DNA from: Gammaproteobacteria bacterium
Lineage (GTDB): Bacteria > Pseudomonadota > Gammaproteobacteria > SURF-13
Reading direction: 5' to 3'
Assembly: GCA_030655395.1 (NCBI GenBank)
Contig: JAURVQ010000083.1
Span: forward strand, 3,907 to 67,906
Length of the DNA: 64,000 nucleotides
The stretch's first letter is position 1, and every line of letters starts with the position of its first letter. The translations under genes and the position numbers were made by a program. The notes under the pieces were generated by a model. It was not told where the DNA came from and made no database searches. It worked only from the letters and a program-made list of their open reading frames with translations. This document shows positions 1,587 through 48,235 of the stretch, one piece after another.

Positions 1587-4500
1587 TTACGGCCTTTCAG
1601 AGGTATACAAAAATTGCACCTCACGTACGTACTCCGGGTTCTTGTTCCTGGATGTGGCGAAGTCCCCCGTTCCGGTGGCGCCGTCGCCGGCGACAGTTCC
1701 CTGACCCACGAGGGGGCTGTCGTCAAGCGCCGAAGTGACATTGAGCGTACTCCATTTAGGAGTCTCTGAAACATTGTAGCGCTCCAGGATAAACTGGGGG
1801 ATATCTATGGCGGCGTTGACTGTGGCATCAAGATCGGGGTTAGGGGAGATGCCATTGGCGAAGGTGACGGATGCATTGTAGGAGGTAAAGGTAGGGGGGG
1901 AGAGGCCGATGCTTAGATTTGGATTCTGCAAGCCCCAGTAACGGTTTGCACTGGCGGTAGCATCAAGATTAGTGGAGGCTCCGATCTGAGGGTGATCGAA
2001 TTTAATGGCATAGGCTCTTAAGCTTCCGGCGACACTGATTGAGTCAAAGGTCACGACCAAGGGGGCATATACAGGGTTGGCTGTCGTACCAAGGTCGCCC
2101 ACTTCGAACGTGCGGCTGATATCCGAACCCGCTGGGAAAAATTTTGTAAGGCCCCCCCCCACGTGACCGCTGGCGCGCGTCACGTTGCCGGTACTTGAAA
2201 TAATCACACCCGGCGTGGTAGCAGTCGGATCCATGCTGAGGATTCCGCTCACCAAATCAAGCAGCTTAGTAACAATGACATCGAAATCGAACATGCTAAC
2301 CCCTGAGGGTGTCGTCGCATCCGTATTATTTATCGTGAGATTGTAAAAACTCGTCGAACTCGCGGGAAGAAAGGTCTGCAGCGCGGTACCGTTGAAGACG
2401 ATGGTGCTATCGCCCGCAGTGAAGGTGCCGTCCTTGGTGAAGTCGCCACTGATGTTATGGATCAATGAGGCTGAACCGGCATTGAATGTGGACGAAAGAT
2501 TGATGATAAAAGTACCGATAGTCAGTGCCGTATTTGCTGTAACGCCGGATGCGTGGGTGTTGGCGATGGTGAGTGAGGTAAACGTCGTGGCGTTGCCGGA
2601 GATTGTCTGTCCTGCGGCGGTGCCGTTGAAGGTGAACACTCCCGTGCCGGAGTTGAAGGTACCGCTATTGGAAAAGTTGCCGGCCAGATTCACGGTCGGA
2701 TTGTTCGTGGCCGCGCGTGTCGTACCGGTTCCGAGTGTGAAATTGCCCGCGATGGTGGTCGTTCCGGCAGCCATGGTTTTGGTGCTGCCACCATCGAGAA
2801 TGAGATGGCCGTAGGTCAGCCCGGAGGCAATCGTCTGATTTCCACCCTGAAAGTTCACGGTGCTGGTGGCGCCGAAGGTGCGTGTGGTGAAGCCGGTCGG
2901 GATGTTGGTAGTGCCGGTCAGGTTAAAGCGGGCACCATTGGCGACCTCGAAGGTTGTTGCGGGACCCACATGCACGAATCCGCCGTTGTTCAGGATGCCG
3001 CTTTGCACGCGCAGGTTGCCGAGGACTCTGGCCGCCGAGATCGCGGCACTCAAAGTGGCGCCGCTCGCGCTGGTGTTGTTCACATGCAGATTGCGGTAAT
3101 TGATGCTGCTTACGCCGATTGGAATGGTCTGCGCTACTGCTCCATTGTAGTTAAATATGCTCGTCGTACCCGGCGTCAATGTGCCCACTGTGGCCGTAAA
3201 CGCGCCGGCGAGATTGATGGTTCCCGCGCCGGTTATAGTGAGCAGATTGCTGGCGACGTTGCCGGTAATAAACACCAGGTTGCCGGCGATGTTGAGCGTG
3301 CCGGTCGAGAGGGTGATGCTGGCGATGAAAGTGGCGGTCGTGCCGGTTCCGCCCAGTGTTACGTTGCCTCCGGCGGTCACCGTGTTGGCACCGATAGCCA
3401 GGACATTGGTAGCGGCGGCGTTGGGTCTGTTCACCGTGACGCTCCCTGATGTCGTGAGGGAGGCTCCTGTTCCGGTCAATGTCAGGCTGCTGGGACCGGT
3501 GACTGGGGTCGCATTGCCAATGGTGACGGACGCAGCGCTGGCGGCGTAGCTGGCCGGGATGGTGACTGTGCGCCCGGTGGCGGTCTCACCGATAAACACG
3601 GCGCTGCCGCCATCGGGTATGCCTCCCGCCCCGGCGCAGGTCCCGGCCACGCCGCCGGAGGTCGAGGCCCACGTCGTGGCGACGTTCCAGTCAGCAGTCA
3701 ATGGATTCACGGCGTAGCAATTGGCGGCGGGCGTGAACGGTGAGCCGGTCGGCACCACGCCCGGGGTGGAGAAGTTGCCGTTGCTGTCTCTGGTAAATAT
3801 CCGGTAGTGGTAAGCGGTGCCGTTGGTAAGGCCAGTGTCGGTACACGTCGTGGCCGGGGGCAAGCCCGTGACGACGCACCGCACCTCGCTTGTGCCAACG
3901 GTATTGCCGACAATGTACGTGGTTCCTTCAACGGGCGTGTCGGCGACAGGGCCCGCCGTGCTCCTCAATACCACGATGCTATAAGCTACGGTCTCCACAG
4001 GACTTACGGGATTGGCCCAAGTAAACACGACTTGCGCATTCCCCGCCGTTCCCGACGCGGCGGTGACATCCCCCGGAGACAGGTTGTCTATCGTCACCGT
4101 GGTGCCGGCGGTGTCGGTTCCCTCATTTGGATTCGTACCGGTCCATGAGTTTATTTTTGCGGTGACCAAATAGGTGGATCCGGGCGGCACCTGCATGGCC
4201 GCATGACTTTTCGGCGTGATGCGGATTTTGTACTGGGTTAAGGTCGTGGTGGCCGTGAGCGTATTGGTGGACAGCGTGATCGTCGGTGTATCGCTGGCGG
4301 GATTGGCGACCGAACCGTAAACCGTGGTGCCGGCATCGTTGGTGATTTCCACCAGACTCAACCCGCCGGAGGAGCCCACCGAGAGCCCGACCACGGCCGC
4401 CGTGATCACATCCGTGCCGGTGCCGGTCTGGAAGGTAAACGCATCTGCCATGGTCGCTGCGCCGCCGGGCGCGAGGGGGGCTGCGGGCGGTGCCGGGTCG

Positions 4501-5297
4501 GCGCCGTTACCGAGGCGAGTGCCAAAGGGCTTCAGTGCCAAAGAGATTGCACCTTTAAACGAGGTGTTCGCTAGCGTCACGGTTGTGTTGGCGTATGCTG
4601 ATGCGCTTGCTTTAACACCCGTTGCCATACAATGCCCGCCCCCAAGACCGGCGGTATTGGTGTTGTCTGTCCGTTCTGTCAAGCTTGTCAGGTCGGCATT
4701 TGCTCCAAAGGAGCATTGGGCAGTGCTAGTGCCGTTGAAGCTTGTAGAGGTTATGAGGGCAACCAGGGTTTCGGCTACTGTCGTTGTTGATCCGGGGATG
4801 GCGCCCGTCGTATCGTTAGCAGCGCCATCGTTACCGCCTGCGCCGGTATCCCAAGGATTGCCAGAAGTTGTGACGTCCAAGAAACAATGAATCTGGCCTG
4901 TTGTGTGGTCTCCTGAGTCTGCGACGAGTGGCGCCGTATCGCCGCCCACTGTGCGCTTCCAGAATAACGCTAACCGGGAAGCCGGGTTTGTAGCAGCTGT
5001 GCCAGCGAACTGTGGGGACCATGTGGGTACTTCAGCAAAACCATTCGCCGTCGTTAGTGAGATCGCCTGGTTCTCCGACTCCACAGCGAGCAGGCAAACA
5101 TCGTTGGCCGCCATACTTGCCGGATAGGGTGGCGTGATAGTTCCTACTCCAGCCGTAAAAGTACCCGAGGCTCGATATGCCGGCGCGGCTTGTACTTCGT
5201 TCACCTCGGCCAAGGCAAACACCAGCATCCCCAGCAACAAAAAGGACCAGAAACGCGGTCTTTTTAAGGCTGGCATCGCTGACAGTTTGGCGGGCAT
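1587..5297 (-). CDS. mshQ: MshQ-like large pilus-associated adhesin (1236 aa from ATG at 5297; signal peptide MPAKLSAMPALKRPRFWSFLLLGMLVFALA; FN3-like segment and long Gly/Thr/Asn beta-helix-like repeats)
   Basis: ORF 1587..5552; internal ATG with hydrophobic signal; size and last position in msh operon match MshQ. Confidence 0.5.
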   Translation of the reverse strand: MPAKLSAMPALKRPRFWSFLLLGMLVFALAEVNEVQAAPAYRASGTFTAGVGTITPPYPASMAANDVCLLAVESENQAISLTTANGFAEVPTWSPQFAGTAATNPASRLALFWKRTVGGDTAPLVADSGDHTTGQIHCFLDVTTSGNPWDTGAGGNDGAANDTTGAIPGSTTTVAETLVALITSTSFNGTSTAQCSFGANADLTSLTERTDNTNTAGLGGGHCMATGVKASASAYANTTVTLANTSFKGAISLALKPFGTRLGNGADPAPPAAPLAPGGAATMADAFTFQTGTGTDVITAAVVGLSVGSSGGLSLVEITNDAGTTVYGSVANPASDTPTITLSTNTLTATTTLTQYKIRITPKSHAAMQVPPGSTYLVTAKINSWTGTNPNEGTDTAGTTVTIDNLSPGDVTAASGTAGNAQVVFTWANPVSPVETVAYSIVVLRSTAGPVADTPVEGTTYIVGNTVGTSEVRCVVTGLPPATTCTDTGLTNGTAYHYRIFTRDSNGNFSTPGVVPTGSPFTPAANCYAVNPLTADWNVATTWASTSGGVAGTCAGAGGIPDGGSAVFIGETATGRTVTIPASYAASAASVTIGNATPVTGPSSLTLTGTGASLTTSGSVTVNRPNAAATNVLAIGANTVTAGGNVTLGGTGTTATFIASITLSTGTLNIAGNLVFITGNVASNLLTITGAGTINLAGAFTATVGTLTPGTTSIFNYNGAVAQTIPIGVSSINYRNLHVNNTSASGATLSAAISAARVLGNLRVQSGILNNGGFVHVGPATTFEVANGARFNLTGTTNIPTGFTTRTFGATSTVNFQGGNQTIASGLTYGHLILDGGSTKTMAAGTTTIAGNFTLGTGTTRAATNNPTVNLAGNFSNSGTFNSGTGVFTFNGTAAGQTISGNATTFTSLTIANTHASGVTANTALTIGTFIINLSSTFNAGSASLIHNISGDFTKDGTFTAGDSTIVFNGTALQTFLPASSTSFYNLTINNTDATTPSGVSMFDFDVIVTKLLDLVSGILSMDPTATTPGVIISSTGNVTRASGHVGGGLTKFFPAGSDISRTFEVGDLGTTANPVYAPLVVTFDSISVAGSLRAYAIKFDHPQIGASTNLDATASANRYWGLQNPNLSIGLSPPTFTSYNASVTFANGISPNPDLDATVNAAIDIPQFILERYNVSETPKWSTLNVTSALDDSPLVGQGTVAGDGATGTGDFATSRNKNPEYVREVQFLYTSERP

Positions 5298-5298
5298 G

Positions 5299-5763
5299 TT
5301 ATTCCGGCGGTCCATAACGGTTGGAGACGGTGGCTTCGAGGCGGCGGCTGGCATAGTCCGGGTTGCCGAAGGCGCCGTATTCGGCGGTGCTGGTGAGGAC
5401 AAGAACGTTAAAGATATTGTTCCCGCCGCCAGGGGTGCCGCCTTCTCTGTGGCGGCTGTAGCTGCAGGTAATCGTAATGTTGATGTCAGGCAAAGAGGCA
5501 TCGGTGAACGTGGACGTGGAATTCGTGCATGGAGACAGCAGCGGTACAGCACTGCCGGCGGGGGTATTCACCGCGCGATTTATGGCCCATTCCAGCCCGC
5601 TTTTGGCGGCATAATAGGTGCGCGCGGCAATGACGGCATGGCTCGTGGTTGCTTGCTGCACGCCGCTGATGGTGACCATGTAAACGCCCAATGCGGCCAG
5701 CACCACGAGCAGAAAAATGGCGCTTATCAGGGTAAAGCCGGAGCAGCAGCGGGCAGCACTCAC
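5299..5763 (-). CDS. MshP-like pilus biogenesis protein (N-terminal hydrophobic prepilin-like segment GFTLISAIFLLVVLAAL)
   Basis: ORF 5299..5763; position between mshO-like and mshQ-like. Confidence 0.5.
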   Translation of the reverse strand: MSAARCCSGFTLISAIFLLVVLAALGVYMVTISGVQQATTSHAVIAARTYYAAKSGLEWAINRAVNTPAGSAVPLLSPCTNSTSTFTDASLPDINITITCSYSRHREGGTPGGGNNIFNVLVLTSTAEYGAFGNPDYASRRLEATVSNRYGPPE

Positions 5764-6773
5764 CGGCTGTTCTCCACCAATACCTGATGCAAGAGCCGCA
5801 CCGTGCCGCCGGTCGTGTCGGAGAGGGTTAAATCGAGTGTTACAAGGCCGTATCTACGCACCGAATTGAAATCGCTGTTAATCGTGCAGGCGCTGACCTG
5901 GGCAGAGACGGGTGCTTTGATCACCCCGGGCAGCGCATCCAGCGTGGCTGCCGTGGTGGGTTGGGCACTCTGAATCGGGTAGTTGGCATAGCGGGTGAGC
6001 GTGCCCAGGGAAGGAGTGGTGCTGTTGGGCACGCACAGGTAAGTGACGGGTGTCTCGATGACGTACAGTCTTTGGTTGGGGCTCGCGCCGGCTGCGCTGG
6101 TGCTAAATCGGTGGAAGACCGCAGTACCTACAGAATTTCTAAAACTAATATGTGTTGCGCCCACGCTTCCAGGGATCGGGGCGGCTACATCGGTACCTGT
6201 CGCGGTGGTCGAATAATTAATCACGAAATTGGTTAAAGGAGTAATCACCCCTGTAGTTGGTGCTGCGCCACCCGCAGGTTCATAGGCGGAATTGCCCGTT
6301 GTCCCACGGTTGTTGATCACCATTCTGTGGGTCGCACTGCTGGTGCCAAGGGGGGGAAGGGGGACAATATGCTGGAAGAGTCTGTGAATATCAAACTGAT
6401 CATCGCCGGCGGCGCCGAATGAAAGGGCTTGAGCGGCGCCTGTGTTGTCGTTATTTATGCCGCCGCCGGTCGTGTCGCGGTACATCGCCCCGTCAATCAC
6501 CGGCAGCATCTCGAGGGCAAAGCCGCTGACAGTATTGATGCGCACGCTTTTGGGCAGCGCGTTGCGCATCTCGCGCGCCATCTGGCGCAGCGCGCTTTCG
6601 GCGTTGTTCACCAGCAGGGCGCGACGGGTGAGGTCTTGATAGCCCTCGATGGGGCGGGTGATAAACACGGCGGCGAGCGCCAGCATGATGCCGGAAATAA
6701 CAAGGGTGAAGACCATCTCCACCAGCGTGAAGCCAGAGGGGCGCGGTGATGCTGGGTGTGTTATGCGTGTCAT
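5760..6773 (-). CDS. MshO-like prepilin-type protein (GFTLVEMVFTLVISGIML)
   Basis: ORF 5760..6773; class III signal motif G|FTLVE. Confidence 0.55.
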   Translation of the reverse strand: MTRITHPASPRPSGFTLVEMVFTLVISGIMLALAAVFITRPIEGYQDLTRRALLVNNAESALRQMAREMRNALPKSVRINTVSGFALEMLPVIDGAMYRDTTGGGINNDNTGAAQALSFGAAGDDQFDIHRLFQHIVPLPPLGTSSATHRMVINNRGTTGNSAYEPAGGAAPTTGVITPLTNFVINYSTTATGTDVAAPIPGSVGATHISFRNSVGTAVFHRFSTSAAGASPNQRLYVIETPVTYLCVPNSTTPSLGTLTRYANYPIQSAQPTTAATLDALPGVIKAPVSAQVSACTINSDFNSVRRYGLVTLDLTLSDTTGGTVRLLHQVLVENSR

Positions 6774-7474
6774 GATGCTGGGCAGGTCTCGCCCAGTTTT
6801 CCTCCGACACCGCCGACACCGCAGAGATAGTTGGTGCGGTAGGCGGTGAGCGGTATGTCGATATCGGAAAAATCATCGTGCGTGACGCGCACCGTGATGC
6901 GCAGCACGCGTATGCGTACCGGCGGCCCCACCGTGTTGGCGACGAGGTTGGCGGTAGGGCCCAGCGTCACGCCGCTGCTCACCACGGCGGCGAAGACGTT
7001 ATAGCGTTCCAGCCCGGCGATGGTATTTCCCTGCCGGTCGCAGACGCCACCGGTAGGAGTATTGCAGCCGTTAGTGGCTACGCTGCCGCTGGTACTGTCG
7101 AGGTTTGCATAATCGCAGACGTTGTTATAAGCGGAGCGCCCGGCCACTTCCCGGGGAGGGCAAGCGGTGGGATTTAAAAACTTCTGCGCCAGGATTTCCT
7201 CCATATACGACTCGGCAATCAGCAGCGCCTGTTGGCGCAGCATGGGGTCGGCGCTGTGGCTGCTGGTCATGCTCATCACCAGCAATATGCCCGACACGGC
7301 GATGGCGACGATGACGATAGAGACAATCAGCTCGATGAAAGTCACGCCGCGAGCGTTGGCGTAACGCTGCCCGCCCCCATTCCTGCCGTCCCTCTTGCGG
7401 GGGCGGGGGGTGAGGTTGTTTTGAGTCATAAAAAACTTGTTCATGGCGCGGCTACGAATCCAGTCGCCCCCCAA
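6770..7474 (-). CDS. MshD-like minor pilin (GVTFIELIVSIVIVAIA prepilin motif)
   Basis: ORF 6770..7474. Confidence 0.55.
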   Translation of the reverse strand: MGGDWIRSRAMNKFFMTQNNLTPRPRKRDGRNGGGQRYANARGVTFIELIVSIVIVAIAVSGILLVMSMTSSHSADPMLRQQALLIAESYMEEILAQKFLNPTACPPREVAGRSAYNNVCDYANLDSTSGSVATNGCNTPTGGVCDRQGNTIAGLERYNVFAAVVSSGVTLGPTANLVANTVGPPVRIRVLRITVRVTHDDFSDIDIPLTAYRTNYLCGVGGVGGKLGETCPAS

Positions 7475-7893
7475 ATGGCGAACGATCTGCTGCCTACGGT
7501 GACCGTCGCCGAGCTGTTGGAAATGGTCGGCACGGTGCCGTAGGCGTCAAACACAATGGTGGTGGGATTCATGTTGAGTGTGATTCCGTCCGGCGCGTTG
7601 CCGATGAAGTTTGCGAATGTGCCGGGGTTGCGCACTGGCGCGGTGCCGTTGCTTTGCGTGAGCGCGAAACTGGTGTTGGTGACGACGGCAAACCGGACGG
7701 GGAGGCCGCTGGTGACGGCGTATTTCTGGGCGAAACGCGCCGCGGCGGTGACTTGATCGTAAAAACCGCGTTCATCAATATCGCCTTTGTTGAAAAAGCG
7801 CGGCCCGGCCACTGCGGCAAGGATGGCGCTCAGGATAAGCACCAGCACCAGTTCGACCAGTGTGAATCCGCTTGTTGTTTTATGATCGATCAT
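7441..7893 (-). CDS. MshC-like minor pilin (GFTLVELVLVLILSAILAA)
   Basis: ORF 7441..7893; prepilin N-methylation motif. Confidence 0.55.
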   Translation of the reverse strand: MIDHKTTSGFTLVELVLVLILSAILAAVAGPRFFNKGDIDERGFYDQVTAAARFAQKYAVTSGLPVRFAVVTNTSFALTQSNGTAPVRNPGTFANFIGNAPDGITLNMNPTTIVFDAYGTVPTISNSSATVTVGSRSFAIWGATGFVAAP

Positions 7894-8079
7894 GGGTAGG
7901 TAGCCAATAAAACATTTCGCTGCCGCTCGACCCCCTTTGCAACCAAATCCCCCTCGCTGCCGCTCGACCCTCCTTTGGAAAGGGGGTGGCCGCAGGCCGG
8001 GGGATTTTGGGCCGCGCCGCTGCTAGTGTTGTCGCTTCGCTTCGCTGAGATTAAAGCTCATTAATTCCGAAGCCATATG

Positions 8080-10113
8080 CTAGTTTAGACTCACGCCGGA
8101 TTTTGCGGCAGGCCCGGATATTTGCGGGGCGGTGGCGGCAGGTACTACCACGCGCCTCATGTTAAATCTTTCGAGAATGCCCTCGACGCGTGTTTCGATC
8201 CGGCGGGCCTGCGCCGTTTCGCCCGCCTGCTGGCGCGCCCGGCGCGTGAGTTCATAGTACTGCAATATGTCCGGTGTTCCAAAATACCAGTAGCGCATGC
8301 CGTCTTCCAGCAGTTGTTTGGCCTCGGGTGTCTTGCCGCGACTGAGCAGGAGTTGCGCGTAGGCCGCGCGCGCCTTGTAAAAGCGCGGGTCGAGCGTGAG
8401 CGCCGTTTGATATTCCGTACTCGCGAGATCAAACCAGCGTTCTCCCGCGAGACCGGGGTTTTGGTGATAGAGCTGGCCGCGGGTGAGGAAAATCTGCGCG
8501 CGCAGCGCGTTGAGCCGTTGCGCCTTGGCGAGCAGTTCGAGGCTGGCGGCGTAGAGCAGCTTCCTGTCTTCGCGCGCGGCCTCGGGCAGTGCCGCGAGCA
8601 GGTGGCGGAACAGGTCGGCGTAGGTGTTCAATACATTGTCGGCCAGCGGCGAGAGGCGGGCGGCGCGACTCAGCGCGTCTCCCACGGCTTCCAGTTTCCC
8701 TTCCGTGGATAGGCGCAGGGCCCGTTGGTAGTAGTAATCCGATGCGGCCTGCGTGGCAAAATAGCTCAATGGAAACAGCGCGAGCAGTACCACCAGCGTA
8801 GAATACGCCCGCTTTCCAACCCAGGTGGCGGGGTGCAGGCGAAGCTGGCCTGCCCCCAGCACTCCTGCGGCGAGCTGATGAAAGCGCCCCAGCACCACGC
8901 CCGCGAGAATCAGCGTGGGCAGCACATAGAAATTGAAATTGAAAAAACTGTGCGCGGCGATGGCAAACAGGCCGGCCAACAGCCCGGTGATTTCGACGCG
9001 CGTTTCCGATGTCGTCCGCGCATTTTTAATCACGCGCACAAACAGCCACAGCGCCGTGCCCAGTACGGCAAGCAAGAGCAATATCCCGGGCAACCCGGTC
9101 TCAATCCAGAGTTGCAGATAGTCGTTGTGTACGTAATAGCCGCCGCTCTCGTCGGCGGGATCGCGCCACGGCGGCCACGCGAGCCAGAATGTGCCGATAC
9201 CGGTGCCGAGCCAGGAGGCGCTTTTCAGCATCTCCCACGCCTGCTGCCAGATGATGTAGCGATCCGCCCCTGCGCTCGCCGGGTTGAATAATACGGCTTG
9301 CAGCCGTCCTCCTCCTCCTTCCTCTCCCCATGTCACGTTAGCCAGCAGGTAGGCGCCTGCTACGAGCATGAGCAGCGCCCAGATATTTCGTCTCGGCGCA
9401 TGTCCCCATGCCATCCAGACCAGCAGGCCTAGCCCCAACGCAAAGCTCAGCAAGGCTCCGCGGCCTTTGGTGAGCGCAAGGGCGAACAACAGTAAAAACA
9501 GCAGCGCGCCCATGATTTTGGCGCTGCGTACACTCGGGCGTTGCAGTAAAAAATAAGCGGCGGCGGGCAACACGATGAGATTCAGAAACGCGGCGTGCGA
9601 ATTAATGTCCAGAAATACCGAGCGCGCTATGTCGTGCTGCACGAACACCCGATAAAGTGCCCACACCGCAAGCACCACGCCGGTGAGCAGTGCCGCGCGG
9701 GAGAGGAAGTGCCAGAGCCGGTTCTGGTCTTGCGAGAGCGTGTAAATCCAGAACACGAGCGGTAGGCTGCCCACGATCCAGAAATAATTGATGCCGATCA
9801 GTGGCGCCGGATGCCAGACGAGCGAAAGCCCAAGCCAGAGCCAGAACAGGGTGAGGCTTAACGTCAGGCCGGTCTTAGGGAAATGGAGCCCGTGGGTGTA
9901 GCTCTGCCAGAGGACGCAGGCAAGCCAGAGATTCAGCAGTGCGAGGCTGGCAGTGAAGCACTCCACCCGGATGCCGTTGAAGAAAAGGGAAAAAATAAGC
10001 GCAGCAAGAAAAAGGGCCGCGCAGAGCAGCGCCCCATGGGCAAAGGATATCCGCTGCGTGTGTGTTCCCACTGAGGCTGATGTGTTTGCAGCCGTACAGA
10101 ACAAGGGGCGCAA
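8080..10113 (-). CDS. O-antigen ligase (Wzy_C)-family polytopic membrane protein with C-terminal TPR repeats; candidate pilin O-oligosaccharyltransferase (TfpO/PglL-like). Start uncertain: no ATG in first ~190 codons, likely GTG/TTG start near 10071-10113
   Basis: ORF 8080..10113; many TM helices then TPR-like C-terminus (YQRALRL..., AYAQLLLSRG...); embedded between mshA and mshC-like. Confidence 0.6.
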   Translation of the reverse strand: MRPLFCTAANTSASVGTHTQRISFAHGALLCAALFLAALIFSLFFNGIRVECFTASLALLNLWLACVLWQSYTHGLHFPKTGLTLSLTLFWLWLGLSLVWHPAPLIGINYFWIVGSLPLVFWIYTLSQDQNRLWHFLSRAALLTGVVLAVWALYRVFVQHDIARSVFLDINSHAAFLNLIVLPAAAYFLLQRPSVRSAKIMGALLFLLLFALALTKGRGALLSFALGLGLLVWMAWGHAPRRNIWALLMLVAGAYLLANVTWGEEGGGGRLQAVLFNPASAGADRYIIWQQAWEMLKSASWLGTGIGTFWLAWPPWRDPADESGGYYVHNDYLQLWIETGLPGILLLLAVLGTALWLFVRVIKNARTTSETRVEITGLLAGLFAIAAHSFFNFNFYVLPTLILAGVVLGRFHQLAAGVLGAGQLRLHPATWVGKRAYSTLVVLLALFPLSYFATQAASDYYYQRALRLSTEGKLEAVGDALSRAARLSPLADNVLNTYADLFRHLLAALPEAAREDRKLLYAASLELLAKAQRLNALRAQIFLTRGQLYHQNPGLAGERWFDLASTEYQTALTLDPRFYKARAAYAQLLLSRGKTPEAKQLLEDGMRYWYFGTPDILQYYELTRRARQQAGETAQARRIETRVEGILERFNMRRVVVPAATAPQISGPAAKSGVSLN

Positions 10114-10131
10114 AACTGCCCCTCGTTCTGT
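10096..10131 (-). terminator. Strong 14-bp-stem hairpin (acagaacaaggggc/gcccctcgttctgt) immediately downstream of major pilin gene; no clear U-tract
   Basis: Direct reading of inverted repeat. Confidence 0.4.
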
Positions 10132-10156
10132 ATGTCTTAATTTCCCGGGAGCGAGT

Positions 10157-10603: not shown

Positions 10604-10778
10604 TAAAAAAGTCTCCTGAATATTGTAAAGTACAAGACAAGGGGCCGCAGCCCCTTGGGTTAAGTTACCTGACCCGTCCAAGCCACGCCGCAGCGTGACT
10701 TGGAAATAGCCTTAAAGCAGGCCAAGTATCTGCTGAAGTCACACGTCTTCTGCATGACGAATCAATGCACCCAGTTAA

Positions 10779-11234: not shown

Positions 11235-11466
11235 TGTAAGCCTCCTTGGACTTTTAGGGTCCGGAGCCGCAGCCCCGTGTATGTGCATCCAACTGTGCCC
11301 ACTGGTCAGGCCGCAGCGCAACCACGGTGGGCATGCCTTCTTCAAAGTGACGTGTGAGACCCTCTCCTGTTGCCGGGCTTCATCTGTGTTCCAGCGCGGA
11401 AATCACCGGAACACTAGTTTCATCATAATCTTAGGATGTTGACAATTGCAAATTTAATGTGGGGGG

Positions 11467-12084
11467 CTAAAATCGCGCCAGTCCGAAGCTGGTGAGTACA
11501 TACAGGCCGCCCAGGATGAAAACCGCAGCGGTGATGCGCGGGTGGCGTACCATGACCTCGTCCGGGGCGTAGCGCATGACGTCGAGGGGCTTGAGCGCCC
11601 TATCCGTGTGGTACCAGCGGTTGGCCCGGATTTCGAAGTCGCGCAGCAGGCTGGGGCGGATGATCAGCACGAGCGCGATGGGCAGCGCGAGCACACTCCC
11701 CGCCACCAGCAGGAATGCGCCGGCGTCCAGCAGCCAGCCGACCAGGTTGTGGTTGAGGCCGCGCCCCAGGGCGTTGAGGGCGGCCTGCGGGTCATAGCGA
11801 AACTTGAGTATGTAGAGGGTGTAGAGCGCGCCCGCGAGCAGGGCCGCGCCAACCTCGCGGTGATGACGGTAGACCGCGCGCTCGATGTGGCGCGGGGCGT
11901 CCAGCGGGTCGGTGAGCTTGCTCGTGGCAAACCATGTGTTGAGGTAGCGGTTGAGGCCCCATACGCGCTGCGGCGCAAGCAGCAGGTAGACGCCTATTAC
12001 CACGGCGACGATGGAGCCGCCGATCATCAACGCATGCAGGACATACCATGCGGCTTCACTCAGAATTTGCCATTGTGCGCTCAT
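11467..12084 (-). CDS. Hypothetical 4-TM membrane protein inserted between mshF-like and pilin genes (no recognisable domain)
   Basis: ORF 11467..12135, start at MSAQW; clear hydrophobic helices. Confidence 0.5.
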   Translation of the reverse strand: MSAQWQILSEAAWYVLHALMIGGSIVAVVIGVYLLLAPQRVWGLNRYLNTWFATSKLTDPLDAPRHIERAVYRHHREVGAALLAGALYTLYILKFRYDPQAALNALGRGLNHNLVGWLLDAGAFLLVAGSVLALPIALVLIIRPSLLRDFEIRANRWYHTDRALKPLDVMRYAPDEVMVRHPRITAAVFILGGLYVLTSFGLARF

Positions 12085-12115
12085 CGAACCTCCTCGACTT
12101 TTGCTTGTAGATAGT

Positions 12116-12272
12116 TCTGTCACGTAGCTGCGCAACGTGACCTACGGGCTGCACGGTATTCTAAATCAATTCAGTGCGTATGCAGGTGCAAATTAAACAG
12201 GCGCTGATTTATTCAGCCAACGTCGTTCCCGCGCAAGCAATCGCAGGTCACGTTGCGCAGCTACGTGACAGA
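12116..12272. repeat. Perfect 28-bp inverted repeat (tctgtcacgtagctgcgcaacgtgacct) at 12116..12143 and 12245..12272 flanking 101-bp spacer
   Basis: Exact reverse-complement match read directly. Confidence 0.85.
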
Positions 12273-12317
12273 GTTACTGACCTACAATACTTCCCCATCA
12301 AGGGGGAAGGTGACGCC

Positions 12318-12869
12318 CTAGCGGTTGATCCAGGAATACGCCTCAAGTGCTTCGAGCCGTACGCCGCGGATGGCGTCCACGCCGTTGTCGAAGCGGCCGT
12401 TGTCGTTCATGTCGTCGTAATCGAGCCTGACGGCAAAGCGCGCGCGCGCGGGACCCGTGAGAGACGTCTTGAAGTATTCCACGTTGCTGACACGATACAC
12501 GAGCGTGCGGTCGTGCAGGTCGAAATACCACTGGCCGCCCTCGACCGCGGCCGGGTCGGGAGCGTCCAGTTCGCCCACGTAGTTGTTGGGGGTTTCGCTC
12601 AGGCGGCGCATCGGGTTGGTGTCGACGAGCGCGGTGAGCGCCGGAATCTTCCCTTTGGCGACATGCGCGGCGACCTCGATGCTGAGCGCGCTCTTGAGCG
12701 CGCCGAGTACGTTTTCCATAGCGGTGCGTTCGGCGTCGATGCGCAGCGGCAGCAGCTTGTTCACCGCGATGACGAGCAGCAGCACGATGATGCCGATCAC
12801 CAGCACCAGTTCGAGCAGCGAGAAGCCGCCCGAAAGGTTGCGTGCGTTGCGCAGCGTCTTAACCACCAC
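12318..12869 (-). CDS. MshF-like protein with prepilin-type N-terminus (G|FSLLELVLVIGIIVLLL)
   Basis: ORF 12318..12869; position between mshG and pilins. Confidence 0.5.
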   Translation of the reverse strand: MVVKTLRNARNLSGGFSLLELVLVIGIIVLLLVIAVNKLLPLRIDAERTAMENVLGALKSALSIEVAAHVAKGKIPALTALVDTNPMRRLSETPNNYVGELDAPDPAAVEGGQWYFDLHDRTLVYRVSNVEYFKTSLTGPARARFAVRLDYDDMNDNGRFDNGVDAIRGVRLEALEAYSWINR

Positions 12870-14094
12870 CGCGCGCCGCCTTGGCGAGGTCCCACATCGG
12901 CAGGAACACGCCGAGCGCCAGGATCAGCACCATGATGCCGATGGCGACGATCAGTATCGGCTCGATGGCGGTGGCCAGGTTTTTGAGGTCGTAGTCCACC
13001 TCGCGCTCATAAAACTCCGCCACTTCGGTGAGCAGGGTATCGACCTGCCCGGTCTCCTCGCCTACCGCGAGCATCTGCAGCACCAGCGGGGTGAACAGGC
13101 CGCTCGCCACCGCGGTGCGCGTGAGGCTCTCGCCGCGCTCGATGCCGGTGCGCATGGCGAGGATGCGTTCCGCGATGTAGGCATTGTCCACCGCGCGCGC
13201 CACCACGCCGAGCGCCTGCACCAAGGGCACGCCGCTGCGCACCGCCATGGAAAACGAGCGCGCGTAGCGCGCCAGCGTGGCGCGGGTGATGATGCTGCCG
13301 ATGAGCGGCAGGCGCAGCCGCAGACGATCCCAGGTATATCGCCCCACGTCGGTCTTGACGTAGTTACGCAGGCCGAGCACCAGCAGCACCAGCCCCACCA
13401 GCATGTAGGGCCAGTAGGCGACAAAAAAATCCGAGGTGCCAATCAATACCCGCGTGGCCCACGGCAGCTCCACGCGGAAGGATTTGAACAGCTTGGCGAA
13501 CACCGGGATGACGAACACGTTGATGATGACGAGCGCGATGCCGATGGCGCCCATCACGAACATCGGGTAGCGCGTCGCGGACTTGATGCGGTCGCGCGTG
13601 TCTTTTTCCTGCTCCAGATATCTGGAAATCTGCGCGAACACCTCGTCCAGCCGTCCGGTATTTTCACCCACCTGCACCAGGCTGATGATGAGGCTGGGGA
13701 AGATGTGCGCGTGGCGCGAGAGCGCCACGGAAAGCTCGCGCCCCGATTCAAGCTGCTCCGAGATATCGGCGAATACGCGCGCCAGGGTCGGATTGCGCGT
13801 GGACTGCACCAGGCCCGCCAGCGCCTGGATCATGGGTACACCCGCCTTGGTAAGGGTGTACATCTGGTGGCTGAACAGAATCAGGTCGGAAAGCTGTACC
13901 TTGTGCTTGCCGCCCCTCAGGCGCAGGCCGCCGGGCGTGGCAGCCTCGGGTGCGCGCGCCTCGCGGATGTCGATGGGCGTGATGCCGCCGCTGAACAACT
14001 GGCCGGCGACGGCGTCGGCGGAGCCGCCTTCGATGCTACCGTCGACTAATTCACCGCGCGGATTGCGCCCCTGATAGCGGTAGACCGGCATCAC
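12859..14094 (-). CDS. mshG: Type IV pilus platform protein (GspF/PilC family), MshG
   Basis: ORF 411 aa, two GspF-domain repeats, 3 TM. Confidence 0.85.
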   Translation of the reverse strand: MMPVYRYQGRNPRGELVDGSIEGGSADAVAGQLFSGGITPIDIREARAPEAATPGGLRLRGGKHKVQLSDLILFSHQMYTLTKAGVPMIQALAGLVQSTRNPTLARVFADISEQLESGRELSVALSRHAHIFPSLIISLVQVGENTGRLDEVFAQISRYLEQEKDTRDRIKSATRYPMFVMGAIGIALVIINVFVIPVFAKLFKSFRVELPWATRVLIGTSDFFVAYWPYMLVGLVLLVLGLRNYVKTDVGRYTWDRLRLRLPLIGSIITRATLARYARSFSMAVRSGVPLVQALGVVARAVDNAYIAERILAMRTGIERGESLTRTAVASGLFTPLVLQMLAVGEETGQVDTLLTEVAEFYEREVDYDLKNLATAIEPILIVAIGIMVLILALGVFLPMWDLAKAARGGG

Positions 14095-14101
14095 TCACCC
14101 T

Positions 14102-15862
14102 TCATGCCGCGGGTTGATCCGGTGCAGGCTTCGCCGTCAGGTCGTCGCTCCTCTCTTCGAGGCCGCCCACAACGCGCATGGCCTCCTCCAGTGTGGTGAT
14201 ACCCTTGAGCGCATAGTCCATGGTGCATTGGCCCAGCATGTGGACGCCCATCTGCGCGCGCGCGCGGCGGCCGAACTCGCCGGTGTCACTTTTGCGCAAG
14301 GCCTCGGAGAGCACCTCGTCGATTTCCAGCAGTTCGTACACGCCGATACGGCCACGGTAGCCCGTGTTGTTGCAATGGGAGCAGCCGCTGCCGCGCTTGA
14401 AGCGCGCCGTGTCCGCCTGCGCCCCCAGCAGGGTGCGCAGCCAGGCCTGTTGGTGCGGGTCGGGCGTGTACGGCTCGGCGCAGGATTCGCAGGTGCGCCG
14501 CACCAAGCGCTGCGCTATCACCGCCTGCAGCGCCGCCGCCACCATGTAACCCTCGGCGCCCATGTCGAGCAGCCGGTTGGCGCAGCCGATGGCGTCGTTG
14601 GTGTGCAGGGTGGACAGCACCAGGTGTCCGGTCATGGCGGCGCGCAGGCCGATCTCGACCGTTTCCTGGTCGCGCATCTCGCCCACCAGCACGATGTCCG
14701 GGTCCTGGCGCAGGGCGGAGCGCAGCACGCGCGCGAAGGTGAGCCCGATCTTGAAGTTGACCTGCACCTGGTTGATGCGGTGCAGGCGGTATTCCACCGG
14801 GTCTTCCACCGTGATGATCTTGCTCTCCGGGCTGTTGATCTCGGACAGCGCGGCGTAGAGCGTGGTAGTCTTGCCGGAGCCGGTGGGGCCGGTGACCAGC
14901 ACCATGCCGTACGGGCTTTGAATCAGCAGGCGAAAACGGTGCAGCATGTCCGCCGGCATGCCGAGTTGCTCCAGATTGAGCAGCCCGCTGGACTGGTCGA
15001 GCAGGCGCATCACCACCGACTCGCCGTAGTACACCGGCATGGTGGACAGGCGCACGTCGATCACCTTGTCCTTGATCTTGATGTTGAAGCGCCCGTCCTG
15101 CGGCAGGCGCTTTTCCGAGATGTCGAGGCCGCCCATCAGCTTGAGCCGCGACACCAGCGCGGACGCAATGCGCTTTTCCTTCATCACCTGCTCGTGCAGC
15201 ACGCCGTCCACACGCTGGCGGATGCGCAGCAGGTTTTCGTCGGGCTCGATGTGGATGTCGGAGGCGCCGACCTGGATCGCGTCCTCGAACATGGATTGCA
15301 GCATCTTCACCACCGGCGCATCGGCGACCTCGACCGATTCGACCAGCCGCATGAGGTCGAACTCGGCGCCCATTTCCTCGCCCAGTTGTTCGGCGAAGCC
15401 GCTGATCTCCTCAGTGCGGCGGTAGACGGTGTCGAAGGTGCGCAGCAGCTCGGACTCGCGCACCACGGCCAGCTGGATCGGGCGCTTGAGCATGCGCGCG
15501 AGCTCGTCGTAGGCGAAGATGTCGGTGGGATCGGCCATGCCGACCGCAAAGCCGCCGCGCGCGTCGTCCAGCACGATGGCACGGAAGCGGCGCGCGTGGG
15601 TTTCCGGCAACAGGCGCACAATCTCCGGCTTGAACTTGTAACGCTTGAGGTCGATGAACGGAAGCTGCAACTGGCGCGAGAGAAAATCGAGCAGCTTGTC
15701 TTCGTCGATCACGCCGCTGTCGATCAGCATGCGCCCCAGCTTGTGCCCGGTTTTCTTCTGGGATGCGAGCGCGGCGGCAAGCTGCGCGGGCGTGATCACC
15801 TGGTGCTCGACCAGGAGATCGCCGAGGCGGATTTTCTTGCGTGGGGTTACTAAAGAGTTCAT
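14102..15862 (-). CDS. mshE: Type IV pilus assembly ATPase MshE (N-terminal MshEN c-di-GMP-binding-type domain, Walker A GPTGSGKTT, tetracysteine motif)
   Basis: ORF 586 aa. Confidence 0.9.
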   Translation of the reverse strand: MNSLVTPRKKIRLGDLLVEHQVITPAQLAAALASQKKTGHKLGRMLIDSGVIDEDKLLDFLSRQLQLPFIDLKRYKFKPEIVRLLPETHARRFRAIVLDDARGGFAVGMADPTDIFAYDELARMLKRPIQLAVVRESELLRTFDTVYRRTEEISGFAEQLGEEMGAEFDLMRLVESVEVADAPVVKMLQSMFEDAIQVGASDIHIEPDENLLRIRQRVDGVLHEQVMKEKRIASALVSRLKLMGGLDISEKRLPQDGRFNIKIKDKVIDVRLSTMPVYYGESVVMRLLDQSSGLLNLEQLGMPADMLHRFRLLIQSPYGMVLVTGPTGSGKTTTLYAALSEINSPESKIITVEDPVEYRLHRINQVQVNFKIGLTFARVLRSALRQDPDIVLVGEMRDQETVEIGLRAAMTGHLVLSTLHTNDAIGCANRLLDMGAEGYMVAAALQAVIAQRLVRRTCESCAEPYTPDPHQQAWLRTLLGAQADTARFKRGSGCSHCNNTGYRGRIGVYELLEIDEVLSEALRKSDTGEFGRRARAQMGVHMLGQCTMDYALKGITTLEEAMRVVGGLEERSDDLTAKPAPDQPAA

Positions 15863-15880
15863 TAGTAAAATGACATCTCC

Positions 15881-15997
15881 GTTACGTCCCCGCCCCCTGT
15901 TGAGGGGGCGGGACAGGGTGGGGGTAGAGTAAAGATTGGAATTTTACCAAGAAGAAACAAAGTAAGCGGATATCGCTTACTTTGTTTCTTCTTGGTG
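15881..15997. repeat. Bipartite double-hairpin intergenic repeat (CCCGCCCCCTgttgAGGGGGCGGG + ACCAAGAAGAAAcaaagtaagcg..cgcttactttgTTTCTTCTTGGT); inverted second copy at 42399..42510
   Basis: Direct alignment of the two loci by eye (~85-90% identity). Confidence 0.75.
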
Positions 15998-16006
15998 CCT
16001 GGGTGT

Positions 16007-17455
16007 TCATCCGCTCACCTGTGCTTTCAAAGTGGAGATGCGGCCCTTGACGAAATCAAACACGGCCGGGCTGAGACTGCCCGTGGCCTGCGCGTGGCGA
16101 TAGGCCTCCAGCGCCTCGGCGGGCTGTTGTGTCGCTTCGAGCGATATCCCCAGCCCCATCCACCATACGCCCTGCTGCGGCTGGCTGGCAAGCGCCTTGC
16201 GGTAGGCGCTGATCGCATCGTTGTGGCGTTCCATGCGCTGGTAGAGTGCGGCGAGAAAGGCCTGATACTCGATATCCTGTGTGGCGCTTGCGGCCTTGCC
16301 TTCCAGCACGGCGAGCGCCGCCGGGGTGTCGCCCTGATCCACCAGTACGCGTGCATACAGTTTGGTGAATAACAGGTAATCCGGTTTGAGCCTGATGCCC
16401 TCGGTGAGCACCGCCTCCGCTTCCTGCGCGCGCGCTTGCTTGAGCAGCGCATCGACCAGCGCTTCGCGCGCCTTGAGGTGCTGGGCATCCAGCACCAGCG
16501 CCTGGCGCAGGCGCGGTTCCGCGGCCTCCGGTTTGCCCTGCTGCAATAGCTGCGCCCCGTCCTGCCATGCTTGTTCGGCCTGTTCCGCGGCGGATAGAGC
16601 GCGCGCCTTCTTGAGGCTGCGGGCAGCGGTGCTGGCGGCGGGGCGCGAGGGTGCTGTAGGCGCTGTGGCGCTGCCGCTGCCCTGGACGGCGAGATCACTG
16701 TCGCCCTTTACCCCCTCCGGATAGAGGTCGATGACGAGGCGGTGGCCATAGTCCTGATCCGGCCCCAGCACCAGGCTCTTGGCCTGCGCCGCCGCCTTGA
16801 GGGTGAGCGTCAGCCGGAGATTCTGCTCGCCCTGGGGCTCGGCCTGCACCTGCTTGAGCAGGCTGTTGCTCAGATCAAACACGGGCAGCGGCTGGTCGAG
16901 CGCGGCGTGCTCCAGGTCGATCACCACGTACTCGGATTGTACGCTGAGCCGGTGCGTGATGGGCGCGCTCGCATCCAGCACCAGACGGGTGTGGTCGGGC
17001 AACACGCTGAGGCGCAGGGCCTGAATCTGCGTGACCGGGGGGGAGGGTGGGGAGGCCGGCGGCGGATCCGGCGCAACAGCGGCTGCCGGGGTCTCCGTGC
17101 CGGGTGTCGCAGTGACGGGCGCAGATGTGTCGGCGGCGGTGGCCTCAACCGGCGCGCTCACGGCCGGCGGTGCGGCCGCAGGCGCCTGCACCTGCGCCAC
17201 GGGTTGTGCAGCCGGATGTGGGGCGAGAATACGCCACGCGCCCCAGATGATGACGGCGGCGAGTACCGAGGTGCCGGCCAGCGCGGCCAAGCGCAGGGCA
17301 GGCGAGCGGGAGATCTGTTCCAGAAGACTGGAGGCGCGTGCAGAGGCCGTCTGGCCTCCCGGCCAGATCAGGTCGTTCAGCGCCGCGCCATCCGACGGCG
17401 CGGACTTGGTGCGGCGCGACTCGAGGTCTTGCAGCATCTGGTTGATGAGGCTCAT
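16007..17455 (-). CDS. mshN: MshN-like TPR protein (N-terminal TM, Ala/Pro-rich linker, C-terminal TPRs)
   Basis: ORF 16007..17467; start MSLINQ overlapping mshM stop (ATGA). Confidence 0.6.
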   Translation of the reverse strand: MSLINQMLQDLESRRTKSAPSDGAALNDLIWPGGQTASARASSLLEQISRSPALRLAALAGTSVLAAVIIWGAWRILAPHPAAQPVAQVQAPAAAPPAVSAPVEATAADTSAPVTATPGTETPAAAVAPDPPPASPPSPPVTQIQALRLSVLPDHTRLVLDASAPITHRLSVQSEYVVIDLEHAALDQPLPVFDLSNSLLKQVQAEPQGEQNLRLTLTLKAAAQAKSLVLGPDQDYGHRLVIDLYPEGVKGDSDLAVQGSGSATAPTAPSRPAASTAARSLKKARALSAAEQAEQAWQDGAQLLQQGKPEAAEPRLRQALVLDAQHLKAREALVDALLKQARAQEAEAVLTEGIRLKPDYLLFTKLYARVLVDQGDTPAALAVLEGKAASATQDIEYQAFLAALYQRMERHNDAISAYRKALASQPQQGVWWMGLGISLEATQQPAEALEAYRHAQATGSLSPAVFDFVKGRISTLKAQVSG

Positions 17456-18378
17456 GGCAGCGGCCACCTGCCGTAGTAGTAATAATATGCACCGAGGCCG
17501 AGCGCCGTCAGCGTGGCCAGGGCGAGAGCAGTGTAAGCGAACTTAATCCAGGCTGATTTTTTCTCCTCGTGCACGTCGATGGTGTCCTGGATGGCGAGGC
17601 GCATGTGTTCGTGACCGATGGCGCGCGCACCCTGACCGAAGGCCGCAATCAGCGCCTTATGGCTGAGGATGTTGATCAGGCGGGGGATGCCGCGGCTGGC
17701 ATGGAAAAGCTCATTCAGCACCGCATGCGGAAACAGACGCTTGCCGTGATAACCCGCCACCAGCAGGCGATGGGCGATGTAGCCTTCCATGCCCTCCCGG
17801 TCCAGCGGCGATAGATGATAGGAAAAACCGATGCGCTGTTTGAGCTGGCGCACCGAGGGCAGGTCCAGCACCATGTCGAGTTCCGGCTGACCGAACAGCA
17901 CCACCTGCAACAGCTTGCGTTTCTCGGTCTCCAGATTGGTGAGCAGGCGCAGCGTCTCCAGCGTCTGCTCCGGCATCGCCTGCACCTCGTCGAGGCACAG
18001 CACCACGCGTTTGCCTGCGGCGTAAAAATCAATCAGCGCCTTGGTGAGCAGTTTCAGCAACTGGTGCTGGTTGATGTTTTCCGGATATTTGATGCGCAGC
18101 TCATCCGCTATCGCGAGCAGCAGTGTCATCGGTTCGAGGTAGGGGTTGTGGATGTAGGCGGTGACGAATTCGCTGCGCAGTGTGTTGAGAAACTTGCGGC
18201 ACAGCAGTGTCTTGCCGGTGCCGACCTCGCCCACCACCTTGATGAAGCCCTCGCCGCTGCGCACCGCGACCAGCAACGTGTTGAGCGCCTCGACATGCGA
18301 GCCGTAGGCGTAAAAAAAACTGGTGTCGGGCGTGATGGTGAACGGAATCTCGCGCAGACCGAAGTGTTCGAGATACAT
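17452..18378 (-). CDS. mshM: MshM, ExeA-like AAA+ ATPase (GEVGTGKT Walker A)
   Basis: ORF 17452..18456 trimmed to ATG MYLEHFGL at 18378. Confidence 0.8.
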   Translation of the reverse strand: MYLEHFGLREIPFTITPDTSFFYAYGSHVEALNTLLVAVRSGEGFIKVVGEVGTGKTLLCRKFLNTLRSEFVTAYIHNPYLEPMTLLLAIADELRIKYPENINQHQLLKLLTKALIDFYAAGKRVVLCLDEVQAMPEQTLETLRLLTNLETEKRKLLQVVLFGQPELDMVLDLPSVRQLKQRIGFSYHLSPLDREGMEGYIAHRLLVAGYHGKRLFPHAVLNELFHASRGIPRLINILSHKALIAAFGQGARAIGHEHMRLAIQDTIDVHEEKKSAWIKFAYTALALATLTALGLGAYYYYYGRWPLP

Positions 18379-18379
18379 G

Positions 18380-20044: not shown

Positions 20045-20439
20045 GGCTGTGGCGTCGTAGTCCTCCCGCTCGGGGTTTTCACCGCTGCGGGCTGCATGGT
20101 AACAGAAAATTCTCCCTGGGTATCACGCAACCGCACGGTCGCGGGCGCCACCTCGACCACGGTTGCACCCTCGAGGGTGTCGCCGGGTTTGACCGCGCGG
20201 CCATTCACTACCGCAATGCGCCGTTGGGGCGAGATCAGTGTGGAGGTCAGCAGCCAGCGCTGGATCGGCGTAGCACTGCCGACATCGGGTTGCGCCCCGC
20301 CCACCGGTACGGCTTGGTAGTTGGGCGGCGGTTCGGTGGGATCTGACAAACCCTTCTCCGCCAGCGGCAATTCGGCTTGCACGGTGGATAGAGAAAAGAG
20401 CAAAGAGGCAAGAGAAAAGAGGAAGACACCCGCTCCCAT
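20041..20439 (-). CDS. MshK-like small periplasmic/lipoprotein (PilP-like position)
   Basis: ORF 20041..20484, start at MGAGVFLFSLASLLFSLS signal. Confidence 0.45.
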   Translation of the reverse strand: MGAGVFLFSLASLLFSLSTVQAELPLAEKGLSDPTEPPPNYQAVPVGGAQPDVGSATPIQRWLLTSTLISPQRRIAVVNGRAVKPGDTLEGATVVEVAPATVRLRDTQGEFSVTMQPAAVKTPSGRTTTPQP

Positions 20440-20478
20440 TCCTTTTCTCTTTGCTCTTGCCTCTTTGCTCTGTCTTTC
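20388..20478. repeat. Palindromic 'gagaaaag/aggcaagag' repeat; related copy at 23575..23670; here overlaps the signal-peptide codons of mshK-like gene
   Basis: Direct reading of both loci. Confidence 0.7.
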
Positions 20479-21151: not shown

Positions 21152-21154
21152 GGG

Positions 21155-21787: not shown

Positions 21788-21790
21788 GTT

Positions 21791-48113: not shown

Positions 48114-48235
48114 AATTACGAATCACGGAGGTTACAGGGAAGAAATTTTGGTCGCGCATAGGGTCACTTGGCCAGAACCGACTATGGTTCTGAATTGGCG
48201 TGCTTGTTGATGGCTTGACGAAGGAGTGTTGGCGC

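Follow-up and report, generated by a model that had tools for sequence, protein, structure and literature searches.

A Wzy_C/TPR membrane protein encoded in MSHA-type pilus clusters is a candidate pilin O-oligosaccharyltransferase

TfpO (PilO) and TfpM, Wzy_C-domain enzymes with a conserved catalytic histidine, are encoded directly downstream of their cognate pilins and attach glycan to the pilin at its C-terminal Ser or Thr; they are 420–470 amino acids (aa) long and have no C-terminal domain (PMC9829042, Table 2). PglL, also of the Wzy_C type, is a general O-oligosaccharyltransferase (O-OTase) of 550–600 aa without tetratricopeptide repeats (TPRs), which uses undecaprenyl-pyrophosphate (Und-PP) glycans to modify internal Ser/Thr residues in low-complexity regions (PMC6901666, PMC3643930). 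PglS, of 520–550 aa, combines a Wzy_C domain, 13 transmembrane (TM) helices and a catalytic His (H324) flanked by arginines with a periplasmic C-terminal domain of about 110 aa (438–548) that is not described as TPR (PMC12800693). It belongs to the competence pilin system of Moraxellaceae, where its gene adjoins that of the pilin-like acceptor ComP, and a Cys-flanked 19–23-aa loop of small residues in ComP is glycosylated (PMC12800693, PMC8457361). TfpW, from P. aeruginosa Pa5196/PA7 (group IV pilin), is an arabinosyl-/oligosaccharyltransferase of 646 aa encoded right after pilA; its GT-C core is of the ArnT/Emb-like kind, bears a DDX motif and has 11 predicted TM helices, a Wzy_C domain is absent, and a periplasmic TPR domain forms the C-terminus (bioRxiv 10.1101/2020.04.19.049825). 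Here we describe a gene encoding a Wzy_C protein with a C-terminal TPR domain, located inside an MSHA-type type IV pilus (msh) cluster in 64,000 nucleotides (nt) of gammaproteobacterial DNA (contig JAURVQ010000083.1, positions 3,907 to 67,906; this whole stretch is the window). In the literature we found no description of a Wzy_C/TPR gene in msh clusters, of an MSHA-dedicated glycosyltransferase, or of demonstrated MSHA pilin glycosylation.

A first-pass annotation, made from the letters of the window, had proposed the gene product as a candidate pilin O-glycosyltransferase. A candidate it remains, now supported by linkage to msh genes, an invariant catalytic motif, and a TPR domain predicted to lie in the periplasm, where a membrane-anchored pilin is accessible. 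The reading we favour, at a probability of roughly 60%, is that of a pilus-dedicated O-OTase that uses an Und-PP glycan made elsewhere and whose TPR domain would select an MshA/B-type pilin or another pilus protein. The protein looks like a new architectural variant of O-OTase and appears to represent an undescribed class of pilin-glycosylating enzyme.

The decisive evidence is genomic context across genomes. We surveyed one genome per species (GTDB), obtaining 79 loci with homologues at 25–54% identity, and called msh neighbours by tblastn of all window msh proteins against each locus, at a distance of ≤6 kb. One or more msh genes were present in 64/79 loci, and in 42 of the 47 loci where ≥3 kb flank the gene on each side; besides the window, about 60 species have the gene in such a setting. 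Carriers include Gammaproteobacteria, Betaproteobacteria and some metagenome-assembled genomes (MAGs) labelled Syntrophales or Desulfobulbaceae; among cultured strains, Thiohalophilus thiocyanatoxydans DSM 16326 (L060) and Alkalilimnicola sp. S0819 (P0107) encode a homologue. The enzyme gene directly follows a major-type pilin gene in 25 of the 79 loci: in 16 the minor pilins come next, as in the window, and in 9 the downstream region is cut or otherwise arranged. It precedes the minor pilins in 3 loci, precedes an mshE-G-F-pilin block in 18 (Sulfuricaulis, Sulfurifustaceae, Ca. Muproteobacteria), follows the minor pilins in 9 and is convergent with mshP in 3; in 6 loci msh genes are present and not adjacent to it, and in 15 no msh match was obtained. 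Two close relatives (L080, L082) show synteny identical to the window, and in the most distant homologues (L077–L079, 25–28% identity) the gene lies directly after a prepilin open reading frame (ORF). Because the linkage survives rearrangement of gene order, we consider a functional connection between the protein and the MSHA-type pilus very probable. Where a MAG has two msh clusters, each cluster has its own copy of the enzyme gene (L019/L022, L069/L074), which suggests cognate enzyme–pilus pairs.

Another MAG likewise has two family copies (L011/L049). At one of them, in a Sulfurifustis MAG (L049:5288-11905), three tandem ORFs of ~645–673 aa come after a prepilin ORF; the first two have C-terminal TPR repeats without reaching Wzy_C at E≤0.001, the family homologue comes third, and other msh genes were undetected nearby.

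The family itself appears, from sequence searches, to be sizeable and well delimited. A profile search of 1.84 billion representative proteins returned 1,668 matches at E≤1e-30; most of the 150 matches listed are near full length (~600–700 aa) and some are fragments. When sequences are clustered at 50% identity, more than 150 clusters exceed 410 bits. A word-index search gave 114 full-length homologues, and below the family the score falls sharply from 297 to 85 bits.

Pilus linkage does not by itself settle the range of acceptors, as the Vibrio system illustrates. The first-pass annotation held that Vibrio msh operons lack such a gene, which presumably is true of the interval between mshA and mshC in V. 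cholerae. It does not extend to the surroundings of the operon: just upstream lies pglL (VC0393), which encodes a broad-spectrum O-OTase and for which MSHA glycosylation was only speculated from proximity (PMC6901666). The enzyme described here might similarly be a general PglL-like O-OTase for many periplasmic or surface proteins, with the pilus cluster as a genomic address only. Its variable place in the cluster, which does not single out the major pilin, is consistent with such a role, as is the ability of TPR domains to bind many partners. We nevertheless judge it unlikely. Genomes with two msh clusters hold a separate copy at each, suggesting cognate pairing, and in the 16 loci arranged like the window the gene is co-oriented and tightly spaced inside the pilin/minor-pilin operon. 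Membership of the PglL family was rejected: PglL_A (PF15864; Schulz 2013) matched 0/23 members at E≤1, and Wzy_C_2 matched only one of the 23, weakly (E = 0.01).

The description of the product as a Wzy_C plus TPR membrane protein was borne out. Wzy_C (PF04932) scored 73 bits against a gathering score of 31.7, over residues 204–348 of the 677-aa ORF, and was matched in all 23 homologues scanned. TPR_19 was marginally below threshold on the single sequence (24.1 against 25), was matched in 22 of the 23 homologues, and the family profile matches many TPR proteins in the PDB. Of the Pfam families that the annotation had suggested looking for, Wzy_C is thus above its cut-off and TPR is found at family level, but PF13425 gave no match at E≤1 in the enzyme or the 23 homologues. 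Hydropathy and the positive-inside rule predict 13 TM helices with the N-terminus inside and an 81-residue catalytic loop (249–329) outside; the 13th helix (422–443) would place residues 444–663, the TPR domain, in the periplasm. An AlphaFold2 model built on 102 homologues (predicted local distance difference test 93.4, predicted TM-score 0.92) shows the C-terminal domain as helical repeats.

The membrane core resembles O-antigen ligases. Foldseek with the model gave a WaaL ligase as the closest solved structure, and a profile of the membrane part matched WaaL 7TPG at E = 1e-13. The family profile was needed to reach WaaL, phmmer with the single sequence or the TM part alone finding no ligase among PDB sequences. 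The 7TPG alignment pairs R204, R271, PWxGxGxGxF (286–295) and H315 of HNDYLQ with residues of the Cupriavidus metallidurans enzyme (CmWaaL), so that the protein combines a fold like that of WaaL with the conserved Arg, Arg, His triad. All 102 of 102 sequences have R271 and H315; R204 is found in at least 90% of them and in every member of a 12-sequence set. The equivalents are R215/R288/H338 in E. coli WaaL, where they are needed, and R224/R298/H349 in Neisseria PglL (PMC3643930), and both TfpM and PglS require the equivalent His (PMC9829042, PMC12800693). This conservation argues for an active enzyme. E360 is also invariant; because it lies near the cytoplasmic end of TM11, we did not equate it with PglL E404 or PglS E379.

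Given this core, the protein could be a glycolipid or polysaccharide enzyme, that is, a WaaL-type O-antigen ligase or a Wzy-type polymerase for a pili-linked surface polysaccharide. The public annotation reads 'O-antigen ligase family protein', and WaaL and O-OTases are inseparable by sequence alone (PMC3643930). The resemblance stops short of the full protein, however. CmWaaL aligns to profile positions 111–388 only and WaaL stops after TM12; the C. metallidurans enzyme (7TPG/7TPJ) has 12 TM helices, ~400 aa, no TPR and a lipid A-core acceptor, whereas the family here adds TM13 and a 220-aa TPR domain. Genomic context also speaks against this assignment, with msh clusters in 64 of the 79 loci and no lipopolysaccharide (LPS) or glycan genes among those scanned in the window. 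Four msh-less loci were sampled, and their Pfam-scanned neighbours included no LPS, O-antigen or glycan genes; these neighbours have housekeeping or other functions unrelated to glycans, namely GpsA, dihydroorotate dehydrogenase, an NtrC-type regulator, a ComF-like protein and SdrD_B-domain proteins. No NCBIfam model covers the enzyme, whether for WaaL, PglL, a polymerase or an exosortase-associated O-ligase. We therefore regard a glycolipid or polysaccharide role as improbable, and the outcome named with the original proposal as fatal to it, a generic WaaL without pilin-associated homologues, is not what was found.

Compared with the described pilin glycosyltransferases, the pilus-dedicated O-OTase that we favour shares parts with each. 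It has the Wzy_C domain and conserved catalytic His of TfpO/PilO and TfpM and, in the 25 loci noted above, their position directly downstream of a pilin gene, but at 663 aa with a 220-aa TPR domain it is much the longer protein. Judged from the published description of PglS, the resemblance to that enzyme is architectural only, extending to the 13 TM helices, the periplasmic C-terminal domain and a neighbouring pilin gene; the genes here belong to MSHA clusters with MshA-like pilins. TfpW, which the first-pass annotation did not name, appears by description to be the nearest architectural analogue, with a pilin-adjacent gene, a similar length and a periplasmic C-terminal TPR domain: the domain logic would be the same and the catalytic scaffold different, ArnT/Emb-like in TfpW and WaaL-like here. 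The enzyme seems, by its domain content, to join a TfpO/PglS/PglL-type catalytic scaffold with a TfpW-type TPR add-on. No O-OTase structure turned up in our PDB searches.

We next consider the candidate acceptors. Both window pilins have a short leader and a C-terminal C-x22-C loop in which Ser, Thr and Ala are abundant; the second Cys of the loop ends the protein. Their C-termini are …NCAATYDQQVIGGTAPSISSVTTGC and …NCYAAYQAAQSAAVSPTISVHTAGC, and the ends quoted in the first-pass annotation (…APSISSVTTGC, MshA-like; …SPTISVHTAGC, MshB-like) agree exactly with the translation. Among 62 major-type pilin ORFs of related loci, 43 have Cys as the terminal residue or one residue before the end. In 39 of these 43 the terminal Cys-flanked loop has 16–24 residues, and in 40 a Ser or Thr stands 2–3 residues before the terminal Cys. 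Ser and Thr together make up 32% of the terminal loop versus 21% elsewhere in the pilin. The window pilins end in ...GC and have no C-terminal Ser/Thr, which rules out the mechanism of TfpO and TfpM; the comparison with TfpO/PilO made in the first-pass annotation breaks down at this point. Because the pilins end in Cys, an internal Ser/Thr site would be needed, as for PglL and PglS. The terminal loop is similar to the Cys-flanked loop of ComP that PglS modifies (PMC8457361).

Several observations weigh against a pilus-dedicated O-OTase. The 15 loci without an msh match are one, 8 of them having <3 kb of flank on at least one side. The position of the gene varies, being beside mshE in 18 loci and after the minor pilins in 9, a pattern that links the gene with the cluster as a whole and not with the major pilin in particular. 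Of the 62 pilins, 19 end otherwise (…ITYDxxTGxxTVDDVI, no terminal Cys), and no single sequon is evident. The PglL-specific residues of Schulz et al. (2013) could not be mapped convincingly: CmWaaL too has P-x2-G-x-G, and in this family N, D or T stands at the H-x3-E position. Glycan-assembly genes were found neither in the rest of the 64-kb window, which holds housekeeping genes only, nor in the clusters, so the donor glycan would have to be made elsewhere. Finally, activity, donor, acceptor, glycosylation site, the role of the TPR domain and attenuation by the hairpin described below are matters that we infer for every family member.

The variable position also bears on a pilus role that does not involve the major pilin. 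The protein might glycosylate the 1236-aa MshQ-like tip protein or one of the minor pilins; or its catalytic domain might be vestigial and the protein serve mainly in assembly or as a TPR scaffold. Its gene does lie after mshD, mshO or mshP in 9 loci and convergent with mshP in 3. Against this stand the Arg/Arg/His motif kept across 102 sequences and the 25 loci in which the gene directly follows a major-type pilin, and we give such roles little credence.

If the protein is a pilus-dedicated O-OTase, it would act as follows. The enzyme would be co-transcribed with the pilin genes, its level lowered by the stem-loop after the major pilin gene, and would insert in the inner membrane with 13 helices, its WaaL/PglS-like core presenting R204, R271 and H315 to the periplasm. 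These residues would bind the pyrophosphate of an Und-PP-linked glycan made and flipped by genes elsewhere. The C-terminal TPR domain would bind the acceptor, most likely the globular head of an MshA/MshB-type pilin anchored in the membrane through its N-terminal helix. The glycan would then be moved en bloc to a Ser/Thr hydroxyl, plausibly within the ~22-residue Ser/Thr-rich C-terminal disulfide loop, and the glycosylated pilin would be built into the MSHA-type pilus.

The start of the gene required separate attention. The ORF list of the window gives 8080..10113 on the minus strand, 677 codons opened by TTG 10113. As the first-pass annotation noted, there is no ATG for the first ~190 codons; the first in-frame ATG is codon 201. 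Among the aligned homologues the N-terminal extension is carried by P0002 alone, and the rest begin at or after the residue matching V15. TM1 is kept among homologues (consensus LxxLLFxxALxxALFFNG, beginning near residue 28 of the long ORF; G47 invariant), and the gene call for P0004 (L082) opens at a GTG equivalent to window 10071-10069. On these two grounds we place the start most likely at GTG 10071, giving a predicted protein of 663 aa. A start within or before the hairpin, at TTG 10113, was rejected on TM1 conservation. We also rejected the start at V50 of the long ORF, which PGAP assigns to the identical protein P0001 (628 aa); that call is too short, since it removes the conserved TM1.

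With GTG 10071 as the start, the hairpin in the pilin-to-enzyme spacer falls between the pilin stop and the coding sequence. The pilin stop at 10157 is 85 nt from GTG 10071, which itself lies 23 nt downstream of the hairpin. The hairpin noted in the first-pass annotation is real, folding at −42 kcal/mol in its 106-nt context (z = −3.7; 0/200 shuffles fold as well), but its overlap with the 5′ end concerns the TTG-initiated mechanical ORF alone. The suggestion of coupled or regulated translation drawn from the start does not hold, an intergenic hairpin upstream of GTG 10071 being no evidence of unusual translation. In a close relative (L080) the same spacer contains a hairpin whose sequence is unrelated, and 25 other pilin-then-enzyme loci have a strong hairpin no more than ~100 nt from the pilin stop, in many cases with a U-tract, like canonical intrinsic terminators. 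From its position and fold, the window hairpin is likely an intergenic terminator or attenuator, or mRNA stabiliser, of the pilin gene.

Two other spacers in this region contain repeats. A second GC-rich terminator-like hairpin (10638-10657, minus strand) lies between the stop of the first pilin gene and the start of the second, so that a stem-loop follows each of the two window pilin genes. Between the enzyme stop and mshC, a spacer of 186 nt (7894-8079) contains a 22-nt direct repeat (7917-7938/7954-7975), present just twice in the window, and two nested inverted repeats; its fold is not significant (z = −1.3).

Features of the window are collected in Table 1. The pilus cluster is complete, with all genes on the minus strand in the mshI–Q order. 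Its upstream half (11467..22834) has T2SSF, Secretin, PilN and PilM domain matches; the downstream genes (1587..7893) carry prepilin motifs with GspH, PilV and PilX_N matches and are syntenic in related loci. The location of the enzyme gene between major and minor pilins, as first described, is confirmed by an MshA-like prepilin gene directly upstream and an MshC-like gene directly downstream.

Table 1. Coordinates of the pilus cluster, the enzyme gene and elements within it (window positions).
Feature	Position	Strand	Basis or remark
mshI	21791-22834	-	Pfam/NCBIfam scan
mshJ	21155-21787	-	Pfam/NCBIfam scan
mshK	20477-21151	-	Pfam/NCBIfam scan
Unnamed small ORF	20041-20484	-	weak T2SSB match below cut-off
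mshL secretin	18380-20044	-	MshL equivalog TIGR02519, 257 bits vs cut-off 250
mshM	17452-18456	-	Pfam/NCBIfam scan
mshN	16007-17467	-	Pfam/NCBIfam scan
mshE ATPase	14102-15862	-	MshEN (PF05157); MshE-related c-di-GMP-binding domain NF053729, 75 bits vs cut-off 38
mshG	12859-14094	-	Pfam/NCBIfam scan
mshF	12318-12869	-	Pfam/NCBIfam scan
Membrane ORF, 222 aa, multi-pass	11467-12135	-	between mshF and first pilin gene
MshB-like prepilin (pilin1), 151 aa	10779..11234	-	translation; leader MNKQKG/FTLIEL; N_methyl, TIGR02532; second candidate acceptor
MshA-like prepilin (pilin2), 148 aa	10157..10603	-	translation; leader MQRQQG/FTLIEL; N_methyl, TIGR02532; candidate acceptor
Stem-loop, 15 bp, GC-rich, without U-tract	10095..10132	-	fold; pilin-to-enzyme spacer
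5′ extension of mechanical ORF (from TTG 10113), probably untranslated	10072..10113	-	alignment of homologues; overlaps hairpin
Wzy_C-TPR gene, most likely coding sequence	8080..10071	-	663 aa; GTG 10071-10069; stop 8082-8080
R204 codon, putative pyrophosphate-binding Arg	9460-9462	-	alignment
Wzy_C (PF04932) domain, residues 190-334 of 663 aa	9070..9504	-	Pfam; includes TM8, TM9 and 81-aa periplasmic loop
R271 codon, putative pyrophosphate-binding Arg	9259-9261	-	alignment
His315 codon, invariant HNDYLQ motif, putative catalytic base	9127..9129	-	alignment, translation check
C-terminal TPR domain, residues 444-663, after 13th TM helix, predicted periplasmic	8083..8742	-	topology and model
MshC-like minor pilin	7441-7893	-	directly downstream of enzyme gene
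MshD-like	6770-7474	-	prepilin motif/domain scan
MshO-like	5760-6773	-	prepilin motif/domain scan
MshP-like	5299-5763	-	prepilin motif/domain scan
MshQ-like, 1236 aa	1587-5297	-	synteny

Several neighbouring genes have features of their own. The membrane ORF between mshF and the first pilin gene has no significant Pfam match (sub-threshold DUF6199) and no NCBIfam family; it is kept at the same position in other loci (L001–L003, L042–L044, L055, L058–L060, L062, L080, L082) and seems to be a part of these msh clusters that has yet to be characterised. In NCBIfam the MshM-like ATPase scores highest against the XrtA/PEP-CTERM-associated ATPase TIGR03015, with 229 bits where the cut-off is 324, and the MshN-like TPR/AMIN protein weakly resembles PrsT; these similarities hint that some msh accessory proteins may be akin to the exosortase system. 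The MshQ-like protein is rich in Thr, Ser, Gly and Ala and has no Pfam or NCBIfam match at E≤0.001. GC content at third codon positions is 0.68–0.76 in the pilin, enzyme and minor-pilin genes (5299-11345) versus 0.85–0.89 in mshE/G/F (12318-15862). Elsewhere in the window, two PhaC-type polyhydroxyalkanoate synthase genes (45274-46953, 48200-49918) flank an alpha/beta-hydrolase gene, and two tandem HBM-domain chemoreceptor genes occupy 58873-62869; both sets are unrelated to the pilus enzyme.

A more far-reaching proposal, which we put forward tentatively and hold at somewhat under even odds, is that these proteins form a fifth bacterial O-OTase family, specific for MSHA. In it, a WaaL-like core would be joined to a TPR domain that reads the folded pilin, internal Ser/Thr residues of the C-terminal disulfide loop would be modified at a new sequon ending [ST]-x-G-C, and the fusion would have arisen independently of, and convergently with, that of TfpW. 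The development of bioconjugate vaccines seeks new O-OTase classes whose sequons and glycan tolerances are also new, and TfpM was reported on that basis (PMC9829042). The TPR fusion would offer a handle on how Wzy_C enzymes pick protein over lipid acceptors, and if many Proteobacteria, sulfur oxidisers and their relatives, do encode a dedicated enzyme in their msh clusters, MSHA pilin glycosylation becomes directly testable.

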